A stretch of 64,000 nucleotides of DNA from Thermococcus sp. JdFR-02. Its GTDB lineage: Archaea; Methanobacteriota_B; Thermococci; Thermococcales; Thermococcaceae. Shown one piece after another: positions 33,517 to 40,530 of this stretch. The notes under the pieces are model-generated. The model made no database searches, was not told where the DNA came from, and saw only the letters and a program-made list of their open reading frames with translations. The stretch spans positions 1 through 64,000 of the forward strand of contig MTLP01000012.1 in NCBI GenBank assembly GCA_002009975.1. The letters are read 5' to 3'. The translations under genes were made by a program, and so were the position numbers. Within the stretch, counting starts at the first letter, position 1, and the number at the start of each line of letters is the position of its first letter.

Positions 33517-34074
33517 ATGAAAGAGGTTATAATAGTAACAGATCCCAAAAAAGTTAGGGCACTTGCTGATCCTACCCGTTTTAAAATTTTAGAACTTTTA
33601 AGAATGCATCCGATGAGCATAAACGAACTTAGTCAGCTCTTAAATAAAGATAGATCCACAGTTTACAGACATGTGAAAACTTTAGAAAACTCTGGCTTCA
33701 TAGAAGAAATTGCCCAAGAGGGGAATGAAAAGATATATGGAAGAAAAGCGAGAATATTTTTACTTAAGTTTGAAGCTGATGAGACACTAAAAGAATTCAA
33801 GCAGAGATACATGAAAGTTGAAGCCAAAAGGATTTATGAGATCCTTACAAACTCTAAAATAAATGTAAAAGACAAAGAAACCTTCCTGAGGCTTGTTGAA
33901 GAGATTCTGAGAGATATAGAAGAATTCTCAAGACCAATCTTTAAGAAGATTTCAGAGTCAAACGTTGACATTAAAGAAGTTGAACTTTTGCACCTGCTTA
34001 ATCTACTTGTTCTTCTAAATTCTAATGAGCTGTGTGAAAAAGCCAAAGAATTAAGAGAAATCCTAGAATTCTAG
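33517..34074 (+). CDS. ArsR-like winged-HTH regulator (paralog of 32594-33173)
   Basis: ALADPTRFKILELL..STVYRHVKTLENSG. Confidence 0.85.
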   Translation: MKEVIIVTDPKKVRALADPTRFKILELLRMHPMSINELSQLLNKDRSTVYRHVKTLENSGFIEEIAQEGNEKIYGRKARIFLLKFEADETLKEFKQRYMKVEAKRIYEILTNSKINVKDKETFLRLVEEILRDIEEFSRPIFKKISESNVDIKEVELLHLLNLLVLLNSNELCEKAKELREILEF

Positions 34075-35505
34075 GACATGCTTAACGACATATGGTATCT
34101 TTTTTGCAACTTCCAAAGCTGTGAAATTTTCTCCCTTCTCTTCTTTAACCATATCGCCAGCGAGTCCATTTAAGAAAGCACCAACACTTGCGGCTCTTAA
34201 GGGACTGTTTCCTAAGGCTAAGAGAGAAACAATTACTCCAGCTAAAACATCACCAGTTCCCCCTGTGGTCATTCCTCTGTTGCCCGTTTTGTTGTACTTC
34301 CACTCTTCTCCATCGCTTATTATATCATAAGCTCCTTTGAGCAAGATTGTGCCGTTGATTTCTCTCGCCTTCTTGGTGACGAGCTTTGCTTTTTCCTCCA
34401 AGCTCCCCTCAGGCTTTTCACCAAAAAGTATTTTAAATTCCCCAGCATGTGGAGTCAAAACAAAAGTTTTACCCCTTAAAACGCTCAAGTCCTCAGCTAC
34501 GGCTTTTAATCCGTCAGCATCAATGACCATTGGCTTCTTGCAGTGCTTAACGAATTCTCTTACAAATTCTTTGGTCTCCCCACTCAATCCAATTCCCATT
34601 CCAATTGCTACGGCATCAGCCTTTTCTGCTAAAGCCAAGACTTCCTCTAGGAGCTCTTTTGAGAAGTTCTTACCCCTAACGGGTCTCAAAATTAAGTCTG
34701 GGTCGTTTATTCTCCTCGCACTTTCTTCAGGCATTGCTAGATAAACAAGATCAACTAAATAGGAAGCAGCTTTTGAAGCTAAATAAGGTGCCCCAAAGTA
34801 GTTCTCGCTTCCTCCGATTATCAAAACTTTGCCATTTTGACCCTTATGCTCTCCCTTTTTCCTTAAAGCAAACTTTGCATCCCCCGGACCGACTAAGTAA
34901 TAGAGCTCCTTTGGATAGCCAATCTTTGCTATTATCCTTTCAAAACCTTCGTATTCCTCTTTGTCCCATTGGAAAGTTACTGCAAAATCGCAATTTACCC
35001 TAACGCTCGAGGGATAGCCGCTCGGCAGATCAACACTAACTATCTTAGCTTTTCCGGCATATTCATTGATTTTCTTAACAGCGCTCCTTATTGGCTCTCT
35101 CGGCTCTCCCTTAGTTCCCGCGCCGAGTAAAGCATCAACTATAACATCAAAACCTTTCAAATCCAGAGCTTTTATTTGACTTGAGTCTTTAAGAACTTTA
35201 ATCTTTACAAAATCGAGCTTCTTGAGAATTTCCCAGTTATGCTTTGCCTCCTCACTTCTGATTTTCACCTCATCGCCGACTAAAAAGAGGGTCACATCGT
35301 TTTCAAAGCTCAAGTGCCTCGCTATTACAAAGCCGTCTCCGCCGTTGTTGCCTGTTCCGCAGAAAATCACCACTTTTAAGTTTTTTCCAAACTTCTCCTC
35401 AATTATCCTCGCCACACCCGCACCGGCATTTTCCATCAATTGAAAAGGTGAAATACTAAGCCACTTAGCGTTTATATCCCAAATGTAAACATCCTCAATT
35501 TTCAT
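34063..35505 (-). CDS. nnr: bifunctional NAD(P)H-hydrate epimerase/dehydratase
   Basis: LMENAG, GNNGGDG, VDALLGAG, HKGQNG, DADGL, LTPHAGEF, GGTGDVL; ATG 35505 after GGTGGTG. Confidence 0.95.
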   Translation of the reverse strand: MKIEDVYIWDINAKWLSISPFQLMENAGAGVARIIEEKFGKNLKVVIFCGTGNNGGDGFVIARHLSFENDVTLFLVGDEVKIRSEEAKHNWEILKKLDFVKIKVLKDSSQIKALDLKGFDVIVDALLGAGTKGEPREPIRSAVKKINEYAGKAKIVSVDLPSGYPSSVRVNCDFAVTFQWDKEEYEGFERIIAKIGYPKELYYLVGPGDAKFALRKKGEHKGQNGKVLIIGGSENYFGAPYLASKAASYLVDLVYLAMPEESARRINDPDLILRPVRGKNFSKELLEEVLALAEKADAVAIGMGIGLSGETKEFVREFVKHCKKPMVIDADGLKAVAEDLSVLRGKTFVLTPHAGEFKILFGEKPEGSLEEKAKLVTKKAREINGTILLKGAYDIISDGEEWKYNKTGNRGMTTGGTGDVLAGVIVSLLALGNSPLRAASVGAFLNGLAGDMVKEEKGENFTALEVAKKIPYVVKHVLEF

Positions 35506-35562
35506 GAACACCACCGTTAAAAATTTAAAAAAGAAAAGGTTAAAAGATTTAGCCAATGGAAC

Positions 35563-35860
35563 TTAAAGAACAATTCTCTTAAATGATCTGTAGTCCAAAA
35601 ACTTCCCAATAAGTATGAACGCAGAACCCAAGAGAATCATCAGACCAAGCAGGCATAAATTCTTTCGCTTTTTGGAATTATAATTTCGAAAAGTTGCTAC
35701 TGCTGTTAGAAAGCTCAACATTGCTCCAATTCGAAAGTATGCGAATTATATAGTTATTTCGTCTCTGTAGAGAAAGTACACCGCCCTAAATAATGTAGCT
35801 CCTAGACAATAACCCAAGTTCTCCTTTCCTATAATCGAGGCTATTACTATTCCAAAGAAG
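35563..35860 (-). pseudogene. decayed small membrane protein gene
   Basis: Hydrophobic frame FFGIVIASIIG...DEITI*FAYFRIGAMLSFL...LMILLGSAFILIG..RIVL* with an in-frame TAA at 35746-35748; no clear start. Confidence 0.45.
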
Positions 35861-36039
35861 GTGTTTTAAATATCACCACTTTTTGTCTTTCAGGTCCTTA
35901 GAAAGACCGAGTTCAAGGCAAAGTTATCAACAGTCCCGTCAATATAATATAGTTGAGAACTTTTAAGTTAATGATAAAGTTAGCTAGTCCAAATTACAAG
36001 AAGGAAGAGAAAGTATAGGAAGGCCTTTTTCATGTTTCA

Positions 36040-36939
36040 TCACCTAATTAAAGTTAGATTTTGGAAGATTAAAGTATAATTCATGTTTTCCGAAATTATG
36101 GAAAATCTAACGGGTAGTAAGTCTTCTTTCCTTATGAGAAGCATAATAGTAGAGTTGCTTTCAATTGTAGATAATCTATAAAAATCATGATATTCCTCAA
36201 GAGTCAAGTTTACATTCTTGAAATATGAGAAAATGTTTTGGAGATTAATGTCTTCTATGTGCTCACATGACATGATGTTCGTATGGATATCTTTTTTGTC
36301 ACTATTACTCCCATTGTATAGGATAACTGATGTTCCATTACAAGTCAAAATTTCTCCAGAGGGGATATCCTGAATTTTAAAAAGATTTGGCTTCTTAAAA
36401 AGATATAGATAAACACTAGACTCAGTATTGTTTAGAATGGATGTTGTTTCATGTATTATGGCCTTATATCCCTGAGCTTTTTCAAATTTTACAGTCATTT
36501 GAGTAAGGAGTGTTTTGGAGTTTAAACTTGTTTCATGGATAGATATAACTACTACAATAGCCAGCAAAATAACCCCCATAGCATATATTGCAAGAATCTT
36601 TTTAGGCATCTTGATATGCTTAGAGGATGCGTAATAAAGAAACATTACTCCGTTAAAAATTAAAAGCTTTAAAGAGATATCCTTTAGAGGAAAGCCCAAA
36701 TAGTAGTTACGGGTTAACAAGAGAAAAGAGACTAAAATCAGATATAAAGAAAAATTTTCAGGCTTTTGTTTGATCTCACTAAGGGAATTAAAAAACAGAT
36801 GAAGTAACAATAACGCCGTGATTATTCCAAGAGTTAATGAAAACATGAGGTTGAACTTTTCGATTTTCCTAAAATAAGCGTCAATGGAAAAGAGCAAAAA
36901 ACCAAGAATAACCAGAAAACCTCTAACTTCTTTTTTCAT
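36040..36939 (-). CDS. membrane protein (about 5 TM) fused to an extracellular LolA-like beta domain
   Basis: Hydrophobic N-terminal half; C-terminal YLFKKPNLFKI..ILTCNGTSVILYN..LIRKEDLLPVRF resembles LolA/DUF2092 fold. Confidence 0.65.
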   Translation of the reverse strand: MKKEVRGFLVILGFLLFSIDAYFRKIEKFNLMFSLTLGIITALLLLHLFFNSLSEIKQKPENFSLYLILVSFLLLTRNYYLGFPLKDISLKLLIFNGVMFLYYASSKHIKMPKKILAIYAMGVILLAIVVVISIHETSLNSKTLLTQMTVKFEKAQGYKAIIHETTSILNNTESSVYLYLFKKPNLFKIQDIPSGEILTCNGTSVILYNGSNSDKKDIHTNIMSCEHIEDINLQNIFSYFKNVNLTLEEYHDFYRLSTIESNSTIMLLIRKEDLLPVRFSIISENMNYTLIFQNLTLIR

Positions 36940-37129
36940 TTAACCATCTCCTAAACCATACTCGCGGAGGGATTGTTAGGATAGTGATAACAAGTGTTAT
37001 AACAAAAACCATGTAAGCTGGGACATTTAATCTCCCAGATTTCCATAAGTTACCCACTACAATAAAAATAATAAAATAAAGAGGTATTGAACGCCCAATT
37101 TCTTGTTTAACAATTATATCCATACCCAT
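36923..37129 (-). CDS. small 2-TM protein (candidate immunity factor)
   Basis: 68 aa, GGAGGT RBS immediately after precursor stop, two hydrophobic segments, basic C-terminus. Confidence 0.6.
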   Translation of the reverse strand: MGMDIIVKQEIGRSIPLYFIIFIVVGNLWKSGRLNVPAYMVFVITLVITILTIPPRVWFRRWLNEKRS

Positions 37130-37136
37130 ACCTCCA

Positions 37137-37826
37137 TTAAGAGAAATAACACTGCCCCATACAGTATCCTAAATCAGCCCCTAGACATATTGCACACGCT
37201 AAACATCCAACTCCAGTTGCAATACAAGTGGGACAGATATACACTAAGCAATCTAAACAATATCCTGTTGTACATTCCTGAAGCATACACCCTACAACAC
37301 ATTCCCAAAAGCCATCATCACTAGTTACATGAATTTGGCCATTTTCGGCAGTTGCTATTAACTCAATGTTTCCATTCTTATCAAGAGAATAGAACTCTAT
37401 TTTGCCAACACTATCCCCAGATAATGTCATCGTATACTTAACGGGCTTAATTTTGTTTGAAAGATAAACTACTACTGAAGACACTCTTACTCCTTCTTTG
37501 CTTTTCTCATATCCTATGGGAAATACTGCAAATGTTGCACTCTTTCCAGAAGAGGTTGAAATTTTGTAAACTTTTGCATTTTTTATTAACAGCGAAGGAA
37601 GCAAATTTGTATTTGCAATTAGTTTTTTAAGTTCATGTGAGTTAACTGCACTAGAGAGAAGCACATACTTTTGAATTCCAGTGATTTCTTCTAACCTCAG
37701 CTTTTCTTTAGTATATACACAGGTTTTTGGTTTTGCAATTTGCTGTTCTGCTAGTACTGGAGCTGCAATCATCCCCAAAATCAAGACTAAAACAAATAAC
37801 GAACCTAACATCATTTTTCGATTCAT
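37137..37826 (-). CDS. secreted precursor with C-terminal 12-Cys halocin-C8-like domain
   Basis: Signal peptide MNRKMMLGSLFVLVLILGMIAAPVLA; basic pro-region; C-terminus FWECVVGCMLQECTTGYCLDCLVYICPTCIATGVGCLACAICLGADLGYCMGQCYFS. Confidence 0.7.
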   Translation of the reverse strand: MNRKMMLGSLFVLVLILGMIAAPVLAEQQIAKPKTCVYTKEKLRLEEITGIQKYVLLSSAVNSHELKKLIANTNLLPSLLIKNAKVYKISTSSGKSATFAVFPIGYEKSKEGVRVSSVVVYLSNKIKPVKYTMTLSGDSVGKIEFYSLDKNGNIELIATAENGQIHVTSDDGFWECVVGCMLQECTTGYCLDCLVYICPTCIATGVGCLACAICLGADLGYCMGQCYFS

Positions 37827-38672
37827 AGGTAGGTCACTCGATAAACAATAAACAAAAAACAAATAAATATTTTTCGTAAACCAAAAGTTAAAGAAATCAA
37901 TAAGAGTTTGAGTAAATTTTTAATTCAAAGCAATTATTTTTATGTCTTTGAAATACTCAACATCACAATCGATTAAATAACATGTGTTACTGCCCTTAAT
38001 TTGACTTTTATTAGTGCTATTTTTAATTATAATCAATATCAAAAAGCTTGATATTACCTTACCACCCGTATTTTACTGTGATGAAAAGAAGGGGAAAATC
38101 TTAGTCCTGCTTTTTATTTTTGTTATTCTCGTCATAAGCCTTGATTTTAATGATAAAAACCACCAATTCATGTTGGAACTCGAAAAACAGACTCCTCAAA
38201 AATTTGTGCGTTCAACCAAAGTCACCCTTAAAAGAAGCTAAAAGAATTCATATCAAACAATACAATCTTCACAAACCCTCACCTCTTAGAGCAATTTCCA
38301 AGTTCTCAATGCAATGATGATAAATAACAGCATTGAAATTAATAGGAAAAGATACGAGTATGCTGTGCTCACCTTGGGAAATAAAATATAGCAGTTCTAT
38401 TGTCTTTAAGAGGAGGATGCTGGATAGACATTAAAATTTACAAAGATGGGGAATCACTTGTGAATTATGAACAGTTCTATGTGCTGTTTCAGATAAGCTC
38501 TACCTGCATGAGCATAGAATCCAAAGATGTGAAGTTTTTGGATGAAAATAAAACACCTTTAGTTTACTATGCATTGTTCTTAACCCAAGAACATCTCAGA
38601 GTTAAACATTTTCGGTAGCACTTCTGGACAAGTGTGTAATTTAATAAACTTTTTTACTCCCTCAATCAACAA

Positions 38673-39245
38673 TTACTCTAAAACTTTCAAAGCCCTCTCA
38701 TAATCCGCCCTTGAATAAAGCACAAGATAAACTTCTTTAACACTCTCAGCTTCCCTTGAAAACTCTTCCACAACTTCAATAAAAGTTTTAACAACCTCTT
38801 CCAGTGGACATCCATAGATGCCGGCACTTATGGCTGGAAATGCAATTGAAGAAATGTTTAGCTCTTCAGCTTTTCTTAATGGCCCGATTAACGCTTTTCT
38901 AAGCTTCTCCTTTAAGCTCCCATTCCATTTTCCACCACAATAAGGCCCAACCGTGTGGATAACGTATTTTATTCCAGAGCGCTCCATGTTTAAAGCGGGT
39001 GTAACAACGACTTCACCGTGCTCAATGTAATTTCTCCCAATCTGCTCTCTCATAGCCTCTTTGCTGATTTTGATGTATTCGTAAGGGTCTCCAGCTGCAG
39101 CTTTAGCAATGGCTAAAGCTACTCCTCCACCGTGCTCCAAATATTTGTTTGCCGCATTAACTATCGCCTCCGCTGGAAACCTAGTTATGTCTCCTTGGGC
39201 GAGCTTAAAAGTTAAATTTCTAAAGGTAAGTTCTTTTAAAATCAT
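38673..39245 (-). CDS. macro-domain ADP-ribose-binding/hydrolase
   Basis: GDIT, AIVNAAN..HGGGVA, VIHTVGP, IAFPAISAGIYG; ATG 39245 after GAGGTGA. Confidence 0.93.
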   Translation of the reverse strand: MILKELTFRNLTFKLAQGDITRFPAEAIVNAANKYLEHGGGVALAIAKAAAGDPYEYIKISKEAMREQIGRNYIEHGEVVVTPALNMERSGIKYVIHTVGPYCGGKWNGSLKEKLRKALIGPLRKAEELNISSIAFPAISAGIYGCPLEEVVKTFIEVVEEFSREAESVKEVYLVLYSRADYERALKVLE

Positions 39246-39249
39246 ACTC

Positions 39250-40530
39250 TCACCTCGACAACAAATCTTCTGCAACCTCTTGAGCTTTATCCAAAACCCG
39301 CTCCTCATCAAAGCTCAAAACTTCTCTATCAAGCATCAAAATCTTCCCATCGACTATTGTGGTCTCGACATCGCTTCCATTTGCAGAATAAACGATGTGG
39401 CTTATAACATTGTGAATCGGTCTTAGGTGAGGTTTGTTGAAGTCAATTATAATCAAATCTGCTAAAGCACCTTCTCTTATTACTCCAGCATTCAGCTTTA
39501 GTGCTTTTGCCCCATTTTGAGTTGCCATCTTAAAAACAGTTGAAGCATCGGCTATTGTTGGATCAAGGATGTGCACTTTGTGTAAGAGTGCCGCTAGTTT
39601 CATCTCTTCAAGCATGTCCAAGTTGTTGTTGCTTGCAGTTCCATCAGTTGCTAAAGAAACGTTCGCCCCTTCTTTTAAAAGCTCCCTAAGGGGCATTACT
39701 CCACTCGCAAGCTTCATGTTCGAGGCTGGATTGTGTGCTATTGTTGCACCACTTTTTGCAATGATTTCAATATCCCTTTCGTTCAACCAGACGCCATGTG
39801 CAATAATAACATCATCTTTCAAAAACCCAATCTCATCTAAAAGCTCAACTGGACTTTTTCCATATTGGGCTTTTATGTTCTCCACTTCAGTTTTAGTTTC
39901 ACTAACGTGGATTGTTATCATTTTCTTGTACTTATCTGCTAACTCTCTAACCCTTTTCAAAAACTCTGGAGAGCAAGTGTACGGAGCGTGAGGTCCAAAG
40001 AGGAAGTTAATCCTCTCCAAACCAAGCTTTTCGACAAATTCCATAACTCTAAAGGCTTCCATAATCTCTTTTTCCCCTTTTTCTTTATCTCCGAGTTCGA
40101 TCATCCCGTGACTTAGATAAGCCCTTAAGCCACTCTCTTTTACTGCTTTAGCAGTTTCATCCATGAAGAAGTACATGTCAACAAAAGTTGTTGTTCCAGT
40201 CTTTATCATTTCTAAAGCACCTAAAAGAGAACCCCAATAAACATCACTTGCTTTGAGTTTTGCTTCTCTTGGCCAAATATGCTTTTGAAGCCATTCCATA
40301 AGTTCCAAATCATCTGCAACGCCCCTAAAAAGTGTCATGGCTAAATGGGTGTGTGTATTTATAAAACCAGGAGAAACTATTTTTCCGTTAGCATCAATAA
40401 CAACATCAGCACTCTCCTTCAAACCTTTTCCAATTTTTGTTATTTTGTTTTCTTCAATAAAAAGGTCGGCTTTTATAATTTCCAGATTTTCGCCATAGAT
40501 GAGGGTTCCGTTTTTTATTAAGATGCTCAT
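39250..40530 (-). CDS. mtaD: 5'-deoxyadenosine/methylthioadenosine/SAH deaminase (amidohydrolase)
   Basis: PGFINTHTH, PHAPYTCS, IHVSET, HNPASNMKLASG, TDGTASNN. Confidence 0.85.
   Translation of the reverse strand: MSILIKNGTLIYGENLEIIKADLFIEENKITKIGKGLKESADVVIDANGKIVSPGFINTHTHLAMTLFRGVADDLELMEWLQKHIWPREAKLKASDVYWGSLLGALEMIKTGTTTFVDMYFFMDETAKAVKESGLRAYLSHGMIELGDKEKGEKEIMEAFRVMEFVEKLGLERINFLFGPHAPYTCSPEFLKRVRELADKYKKMITIHVSETKTEVENIKAQYGKSPVELLDEIGFLKDDVIIAHGVWLNERDIEIIAKSGATIAHNPASNMKLASGVMPLRELLKEGANVSLATDGTASNNNLDMLEEMKLAALLHKVHILDPTIADASTVFKMATQNGAKALKLNAGVIREGALADLIIIDFNKPHLRPIHNVISHIVYSANGSDVETTIVDGKILMLDREVLSFDEERVLDKAQEVAEDLLSR

Follow-up and report, generated by a model that had tools for sequence, protein, structure and literature searches.

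Three coupled genes for a cysteine-rich secreted precursor and two membrane proteins in Thermococcus sp. JdFR-02: a candidate polymorphic archaeocin cassette

Gene organization of the cassette

The DNA examined here, referred to as the window, is a stretch of 64,000 nucleotides (nt) from Thermococcus sp. JdFR-02 (assembly GCA_002009975.1, contig MTLP01000012.1, positions 1 to 64,000). Within an AT-rich islet lying between nnr and a macro-domain gene, it carries three closely packed open reading frames (ORFs) on the minus strand: gene 1 (37137-37862; product P0001), gene 2 (36923-37129, 68 aa; P0002) and gene 3 (36040-36939, 299 aa; P0003). A preliminary description, made from the sequence, had proposed that this cassette encodes a secreted antimicrobial peptide (archaeocin) resembling halocin C8, along with proteins for immunity and handling. 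The gene coupling that it described was confirmed at 36040-37826: 7 nt separate genes 1 and 2 (13 nt with the third codon of gene 2 as its start), and 17 nt are common to genes 2 and 3. The parts of the three genes are as follows.

37749-37826, minus strand: gene 1, signal peptide, residues 1-26 (read from the sequence; helix at residues 7-21 in the AlphaFold2 (AF2) model)
37323-37748, minus strand: gene 1, N-terminal carrier or pro-domain, residues 27-168, alpha/beta, Lys-rich, with one Cys (C36)
37311-37322, minus strand: gene 1, acidic junction S-D-D-G, residues 169-172, candidate processing site
37140-37310, minus strand: gene 1, W-type tail, residues 173-229, Cys-rich and hydrophobic, with three predicted helices (stop codon at 37137-37139)
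36923-37129, minus strand: gene 2, P0002, 68 aa, two transmembrane (TM) segments, candidate cognate immunity protein (probable start at codon 3, 37123)
36535-36939, minus strand: gene 3, membrane part of P0003, residues 1-135, about five hydrophobic segments (read from the sequence)
36040-36534, minus strand: gene 3, putative LolA-like extracytoplasmic domain of P0003, residues 136-299 (stop codon at 36040-36042)

Anatomy of the precursor

The likeliest start of gene 1 is the ATG at 37826, which gives a protein of 229 aa. Its N-terminus, MNRKMMLGSLFVLVLILGMIAAPVLA followed by EQQ, is a hydrophobic signal without twin arginine, and cleavage is predicted after VLA because the residues there form an A-x-A-like pattern. 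The 142 residues that follow (27-168) include 18 Lys and have an isoelectric point (pI) of 9.5, in agreement with the signal type, the Lys-rich pro-region and the SDDG junction described earlier. The one Cys of this region, C36 (window 37719-37721), lies near the mature N-terminus and is invariant across a 37-sequence alignment; the Cys total of the precursor is odd.

The junction reads TSDDG/FWEC, with the slash at the start of the tail. D-G-(F/Y)-W is found at the tail start in five of six aligned W tails from Thermococcaceae, and on a second scaffold (B, below) this motif is preceded by a conserved EYNQxKAxG stretch. By analogy with the halocin C8 precursor, ProC8, cleavage would occur at SDDG. 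The 57-aa tail contains 12 Cys and no Lys or Arg (pI 4.05; 6.08 kDa; grand average of hydropathy 1.13). Cys frequency is 0.64% over the 37 ORFs of at least 200 aa in the window, and the binomial tail probability for 12 Cys among 57 residues is about 2e-15. Both the hydrophobic 12-Cys tail, now placed at residues 173-229, and the rarity of Cys elsewhere in the window are as first reported.

The AF2 model of P0001 (alignment A2; predicted local distance difference test score (pLDDT) 86.9, predicted template-modeling score 0.79) comprises an alpha/beta domain and then tail helices at residues 173-187, 189-204 and 208-228, with pLDDT mostly >90 across residues 41-229. A Foldseek comparison of this model with the PDB found nothing at an expectation value (E) <=0.001, and a PDB sequence search with alignment A4 found nothing under E 0.5. 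In a wide VIA-align search the best Z was 5.7, which is under the noise mark of the tool; many START/Bet v1 helix-grip rows appeared at Z 4-5.2 over residues 38-196, likewise below that mark. These rows give no more than a hint that the beta-sheet would cradle the first tail helices. When the tail alone was used as query, the best score in the ESM Atlas was 0.84, to unnamed clusters, and provided no lead.

A deletion in this gene was seen in metagenome run X5, which contains a relative 90-95% identical to the window. One contig joins position 37176 to 37654 with 3 other letters between them; 477 nt are skipped, for a net loss of 474 nt in frame from the precursor gene, and the 2-TM gene is retained. 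This evidence is weak, being a single contig at depth 56.

Relatives of the precursor and variability of the tail

None of the three cassette proteins was matched in Pfam, NCBIfam or PADLOC. One close relative of P0001 (P0004, 80% identical) was found among 5.8 billion proteins searched, and HMMER over 1.8 billion representatives returned six proteins of similar design, the clusters of which were assigned by exact-match look-up to Methanoculleus, Methanosarcina mazei and an Archaeoglobus metagenome-assembled genome (MAG). All of these are named hypothetical except for one Methanoculleus homolog with the UniRef name "PepSY domain-containing"; Pfam gave this name no support at E<=0.1, and it was rejected. 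The N-domain of P0001 is homologous to N-domains of proteins from Methanoculleus, Methanosarcina and metagenomes, and ~235-aa proteins of other genera gave weak full-length matches. Long proteins that phmmer matched to residues 132-161 are Ig-like repeat proteins with a common beta-hairpin motif, and these were set aside as not being relatives. W-like tails are present on the precursor relatives P0068 (Methanoculleus), P0072-P0074 (Methanosarcina mazei) and P0021 (Archaeoglobus sp. MAG); therefore, the module is not confined to Thermococcales.

The tail of P0001 alone was matched at 33-41% identity in ~300-aa proteins of three genomes (G055, G064 and G059; G and L numbers denote genomes and loci), and it is 29-42% identical to tails borne on an unrelated scaffold in these genomes and in G061 and G048. 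Profile A1, made from the matches to P0001, gathered 45 proteins, none with a Pfam domain, those with names being hypothetical proteins of Thermococcus or Pyrococcus. The broader profile A2, used at E<=1e-6, matched 60 of 97 Thermococcaceae genomes, many with several copies or fragments.

Over their full length, the window type and a large family of Thermococcales, the C-type, are related (hhalign 95%, E 3.5e-8). Among the C-type proteins analyzed (n=25), identity is 65% for the N part and 41% for the tail, or 28% for the tail when Cys-Cys columns are omitted. Of the 300 pairs, 294 show lower conservation of the tail than of the N part, in line with the hypervariability of the Cys tail anticipated in the preliminary description. 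The Cys count of the tail is even in 45 of 46 proteins (C-type 25/25, W 9/10, halocin C8 11/11) and N parts usually contain 1 or 3 Cys. These counts fit an autonomous and completely disulfide-bonded module. Across W tails the number of Cys ranges from 7 to 16, and several Cys columns are not conserved.

Exchange of tails on a common scaffold

We searched for halocin C8 itself using two hidden Markov models (HMMs). TIGR04449 (halocin_C8_dom) found nothing at E<=10 in a six-frame translation of the whole genome, with a Haloferax volcanii control above cut-off; PF22862 (Hac8_like_N), the model of the HalI-like N-terminal immunity domain, had no match in the genome at E<=10, with a positive control. 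Neither model matched P0001 or 14 family members, and PF22862 was also not matched by the Thermococcus proteins that do have a halocin C8 domain. When 10 W tails were compared with 11 Thermococcus halocin C8 tails, the hhalign probability was 0.2%. Likeness to halocin C8 by homology, as first proposed, was thus not upheld; judged from its sequence, the W tail is an alternative module in the halocin C8 slot, with no detectable homology to halocin C8.

TIGR04449 matched 12 of 133 Thermococci genomes, 6 of them above the curated cut-off; the halocin C8-domain Thermococcus genomes are G017, G041, G050, G060, G072 and G074, and the match in G018 is weaker. The B scaffold is common to halocin C8-domain proteins and to the W-tail proteins of G055, G064, G059, G061 and G048, and on this scaffold both tail types begin after one conserved stretch (...EYNQxKAxG..../D). 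Across 12 pairings of a W protein with a halocin C8 protein, the N parts are 73% identical, the last 40 residues likewise 73%, and the tails 19%. The opposite pattern was obtained for P0001 against L003 and L004 (N part 15-16%, tail 29-31%). The W tail is found, then, on two unrelated scaffolds (that of the window and B), and at least seven unrelated tail classes are found on one N-terminal scaffold; 21 further loci that were sampled showed more Cys-rich tail classes on scaffold B.

In loci L043 and L048-L067 the N-terminal scaffold is ~245 aa, rich in N-glycosylation sequons, and carries many unrelated Cys-rich tails. A long tail class on scaffold B (~120 aa, at least 12 Cys) was seen in 11 loci. 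The genome from which the window derives (G000) has a second cassette of like design, on contig C35, with a 298-aa secreted protein (L047:1612-2508, minus strand) in which the N-terminal region is similar and the Cys-rich hydrophobic tail is different; it is followed by two genes, of 122 and 110 aa, with three TM segments each (L047:1262-1630 and L047:924-1256).

The two-TM gene tracks the tail

Gene 2 is present as described earlier, at 36923-37129, and its product has two hydrophobic segments. The homologs of P0002 begin at its codon 3 (4/4), are 33-43% identical to it and have 13 invariant columns. The first gene downstream of the precursor was tabulated for 22 modules picked by junction pattern, a set that leaves out 11 long-tail genes and L053. 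These modules form seven tail clusters and twelve clusters of first-downstream TM ORFs, and the number of TM clusters common to different tail clusters was zero; within the halocin C8 cluster, four TM clusters track the tail subtypes. Complete W tails were followed by a P0002 homolog in all six cases (five by ORF call, L049 by tblastn), irrespective of which of the two scaffolds bore the tail, and none of the 11 halocin C8-tail loci examined had a P0002 homolog.

Among the 97 genomes, the W-tail profile matched 9 (6 with complete tails and 3 with fragments), in keeping with the patchy distribution foreseen in the earlier account, the P0002 profile matched 15, and both matched 8. In all 8 the two are adjacent, with the P0002 homolog directly downstream. 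Fisher's p for this co-occurrence is 3.7e-7, a value that is overstated because the genomes are related.

L048, a class-4 locus of G060, seemed to be an exception to this pairing; there, an orphan C-terminal fragment of a W tail precedes the P0002 homolog. The arrangement in G038 is the same, with a W-tail fragment and a P0002 homolog behind the precursor of another tail class. Orphan tail modules or fragments that have their own small TM gene were located at L028:513-1007, L048:3318-3640 and G038:C110:1131164-1131472, in relatives only and not in the window, each preceded by a full-length precursor whose tail belongs to a different class. G035 has an intact P0002 homolog (L045:1722-1925, minus strand; 43% identical) with no precursor gene upstream, adjoined by a P0003 homolog broken by TAA stops; the P0002 homolog looks like an orphan immunity remnant. 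Decayed cassettes of the window type occur in another genus, in G083 (L010:546-1494) and G078 (L012:1501-2449), where the first ~54 residues of the precursor remain (39% identical) and, ~620 nt on, lies the closest P0002 homolog found (62% identical over residues 1-52).

Since one scaffold serves many tails, the N-domain would not, in contrast to the HalI model, be the specific immunity factor; the preliminary description had cited this role of the N-terminal part for halocin C8, and to extend it to the cassette does not agree with the scaffold carrying at least seven unrelated tail classes and with the 2-TM gene following the tail. A complex prediction for the W tail (residues 165-229) with the 2-TM protein gave a score of 0.20, the mark being 0.32.

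The membrane part and LolA-like domain of gene 3

In other W loci, a multi-TM gene of 88-128 aa comes after the 2-TM gene, and its product is similar to residues 4-110 of P0003 (phmmer E 6.6e-7, 5.4e-6, 2.4e-5, 4.6e-3 and 1.1e-2). The C-domain (164 residues) has seven N-x-S/T sequons. In the ESM Atlas it scored 0.92 by feature to LolA/UCP033729/MucB_RseB clusters, and the structural rows gave template-modeling scores of 0.69-0.83 over 149-161 residues of 136-299, nine of the ten clusters being LolA-type and one unnamed; these rows use the Atlas's own model of P0003, for which whole-protein pLDDT is 0.65, and are lead-level evidence. No curated LolA-clan match was obtained for P0003 from Pfam or NCBIfam at E<=1. 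As a lead from this model, residues 136-299 may be LolA-like, i.e., an unclosed beta-barrel with an internal helix plug, as in LolA, LolB and RseB. The earlier assignment of gene 3 as a multi-TM plus LolA-like gene holds to this extent, with the segment count corrected to about five.

The Thermococcus halocin C8-domain loci have the same order as the cassette (precursor, small TM gene, further TM gene), and differ from it in having another tail family and another small TM family. One type among them, with precursors of 261-264 aa (scaffold D; G018, G072, G074 and G060), also encodes a membrane-anchored accessory protein of 169-175 aa with the LolA fold (4/4). For the 169-aa accessory (AF2 pLDDT 82.7), Foldseek matched LolA at E 1.8e-7 with a template-modeling score of 0.66. 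The fusion of TM segments to the LolA-like part seen in the window was found, among halocin C8 loci, in G060 only, where the accessory is joined to five TM segments, as in P0003.

The islet as an insertion

The islet and its surroundings include the following features.

35557-38672, strand not applicable: AT-rich islet, GC 0.25-0.37 compared with 0.41-0.46 in the flanking genes
34063-35556, minus strand: nnr, left flank of the islet
38673-39311, minus strand: macro-domain gene, right flank of the islet
37861-37876, minus strand: candidate archaeal BRE/TATA, A/T-rich box cgAAAAATATTTATTT, 35-50 nt upstream of the ATG (read from the sequence)

The islet is ~3.1 kb, with a GC content of 0.30-0.37 across 35900-38450 and a minimum of 0.25 at 37850-38149; of the two flanks, nnr has values of 0.41-0.45 and the macro-domain gene values of 0.42-0.46. 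In G002, the nearest relative searched, only 22 bp separate the macro-domain gene and nnr, and because of this 35557-38672 is taken as an insertion. Among the loci from 10 other relatives, five include both flanking genes, separated by 59 bp to 1.2 kb; small membrane ORFs occur in four of these five gaps, and a Cys-rich precursor in none of the five. The islet is an insertion at a variable spot. A repeat search for insertion scars around it yielded only short, imperfect, chance-like pairs.

The A/T-rich box cgAAAAATATTTATTT is a possible BRE/TATA (the binding site of transcription factor B and the TATA element). The non-coding flanks of the islet contain small ORFs with hydrophobic segments at 35563-35721 (minus strand, 52 aa) and 38014-38241 (plus strand, 75 aa); six-frame pieces of these flanks, including both small ORFs, had no relatives among the 64 loci compared. 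Neither a sensor kinase or regulator nor ABC (ATP-binding cassette) transporter genes were found among the ORFs of the islet.

Discussion

We consider it probable that the cassette is a polymorphic archaeocin locus that encodes a new Cys-rich toxin module, a candidate cognate immunity protein and a handling protein. This reading is favored because the W tail occupies the position of a proven archaeocin domain; because the small TM gene downstream tracks the tail and not the scaffold; because orphan arrays, as seen in relatives, are typical of polymorphic toxin loci; because the tails are hypervariable, with even Cys counts and helices in the AF2 model; because a LolA-fold accessory also occurs in halocin C8-type loci; and because the cassette is an insertion of patchy distribution. 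Comparison (the module swap, the tail-linked TM genes, the remnants, the even Cys counts and the LolA-fold accessory) likewise supports the broader claim of the preliminary description, a secreted disulfide-rich peptide system with genes for immunity and handling.

We infer the disulfides, the cleavage, the toxicity, the immunity and the role of gene 3, and the following course may be pictured. The gene 1 product, a precursor of 229 aa, would be exported via Sec; once outside, the 57-aa tail would fold to a three-helix, six-disulfide hydrophobic module, held on the beta-sheet of the Lys-rich N-domain. The tail would probably be cut near SDDG to yield an anionic peptide of ~6 kDa, and the released peptide would attack competing archaea at the envelope or membrane. 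The 68-aa two-TM protein would be the cognate immunity protein of the W tail type; gene 3 would anchor a LolA-like domain for hydrophobic cargo on the outer face of the membrane, where it may handle or sequester the peptide.

Several points weigh against the archaeocin reading. It has been reached by comparison, and the W tail has no detectable halocin C8 homology, function being transferred through position and context only. The alignment that was put into AF2 mixes distant rows, since the link between the window's scaffold (A) and the C-type is seen only at full length; for the A and C N-domains alone hhalign gave 1%, and for the A and D N-domains alone, which are weakly related, only 75% (E 2.6e-5). 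The W tail of L005 has 7 Cys. No intact homolog of P0003 was found among the 5.8 billion proteins, only a truncated copy of itself, and its C-domain compared with the LolA-fold accessory of halocin C8 loci gave an hhalign probability of 0.2%; because there is no sequence match, the likeness of the two is one of fold and position, with homology not shown. As for the pairing of tail and TM gene, the genomes sampled are related and are not independent samples, the short W-tail fragment of G071 is unaccompanied by a P0002 homolog, P0002-family matches occur without a W tail in seven genomes (G035, G083 and G078 among them), and the two loci of class 5 have different first downstream ORFs, by automated call. 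Finally, a hydrophobic tail could have the alternative role of a membrane anchor.

Such an anchor is the core of the alternative that survives best, a surface recognition module in which the precursor remains attached to the cell through its Cys-rich hydrophobic tail. The polymorphism would then serve adhesion or the distinction of self from non-self, and the small TM proteins would be partners in the membrane and not immunity proteins. The tail does appear TM-like on a hydropathy scan, N-domains of the B scaffold have many N-glycosylation sequons, like surface glycoproteins, and hypervariability together with partner co-variation fits recognition systems too; the VARTIG paper (PMC8416519) raises the same alternatives for a different Thermococcales module, an Ig-domain. 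However, the variable part of such a protein would sit inside the membrane and not be exposed, and a tail with four acidic residues, and with no basic ones flanking it, would be unusual as an anchor. The same slot is also occupied by a domain known, in its type member, as a peptide that is released and experimentally active, and orphan tails with their partners, as well as loss of the precursor with the partner kept, are a better fit to toxin and immunity. On balance we regard surface recognition as unlikely.

A secreted signaling peptide, i.e., a Cys-rich pheromone with the TM and LolA-like proteins serving export or sensing, is more doubtful still. Its anatomy would be the same as that of an archaeocin (a secreted precursor and a small stable peptide), and strain-specific pheromone variants are known in bacteria; but the islet ORFs include no sensor kinase or regulator, the presence of several different cassettes plus orphan modules per genome fits weapons better, and we know of no pheromone resembling a hydrophobic ~6 kDa module with six disulfides. 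That the 12 Cys ligate a metal or Fe-S cofactor in a structural domain of a housekeeping envelope protein is very improbable, in spite of CxxC/CxxxC spacings like those of metal sites, given a Sec-type signal, so that export would be unfolded, Cys columns of which several are not conserved among W tails, W-tail Cys counts that vary from 7 to 16 and are even in 9/10, a gene that is an insertion absent from the nearest relative, with a W-tail match in 9/97 genomes only, and no metal-binding family matched in Pfam or NCBIfam by P0001 and 14 family members.

Under the archaeocin reading, the nearest known system is halocin C8 with its precursor ProC8 in Natrinema, where, according to a preprint (10.64898/2026.07.27.741052), the C-terminal peptide is released from the precursor and is experimentally active. 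Each is a secreted precursor with an N-terminal domain of ~150-200 aa and a hydrophobic C-terminal stretch of 57-90 residues, rich in Cys that are even in number, each has accessory membrane genes nearby, and the halocin C8 domain and the W tail interchange on one Thermococcus scaffold. The cassette differs in having no match to either HMM, in its Cys pattern, in a Sec-type signal where that of halocin is for twin-arginine translocation, and in that specific immunity more likely resides in the 2-TM gene than in the N-domain; the islet is also without the ABC transporter genes and the regulator of the ProC8 neighborhood, as described in that preprint (10.64898/2026.07.27.741052).

With polymorphic toxin systems (for which PMC8416519 cites Zhang et al. 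2012 and Makarova et al. 2019) the family has in common a constant N-terminal part, a conserved junction and then variable C-terminal modules, as well as an immunity gene adjoining the module and, in relatives, orphan module-immunity arrays. Those systems have nucleases or deaminases as modules, where the modules here are small Cys-rich hydrophobic peptides; the scaffold here is short (150-250 aa), without known delivery repeats, and the modules would probably be delivered by release instead of contact. Class II bacteriocin operons of Gram-positive bacteria, as here, have a gene for a small membrane-active peptide and then one for a small multi-TM immunity protein; their peptides have a double-glycine leader, whereas the precursor here has a long pro-domain and a Sec signal, many disulfides, and no dedicated ABC exporter in the islet.

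No characterized archaeocin system of this type from Thermococcales was found in the full-text literature; the coverage did not extend to Makarova et al. 2019, and newness is provisional. The earlier statement that Thermococcales have no characterized equivalent agrees with this literature, and it has to be qualified by the halocin C8-domain genes themselves, which are above the curated cut-off in 6/133 Thermococci genomes. Makarova et al. reportedly expanded the halocin C8 family in 2019 and predicted further archaeocin-like families. In molecular detail, only three halocin families have been described, according to the preprint 10.64898/2026.07.27.741052.

More tentatively, we propose a combinatorial archaeocin system in Thermococcales, with relatives in Methanosarcina, Methanoculleus and Archaeoglobus, in which at least seven classes of disulfide-locked modules would be borne on a few secreted scaffolds, halocin C8 being one class, each module having a small membrane immunity protein and often a LolA-fold handler. 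W would then be a new archaeocin family and a first candidate peptide weapon of hyperthermophiles, and the A-type scaffold a new carrier.

If this is true, hyperthermophilic archaea carry diverse, swappable peptide toxins with matched immunity genes, and these would provide a testable system in genetically tractable Thermococcus or Pyrococcus, as well as a source of extremely heat-stable disulfide-rich peptides. The design of the halocin C8 precursor would represent a general scaffold-plus-module architecture, and not a single family.

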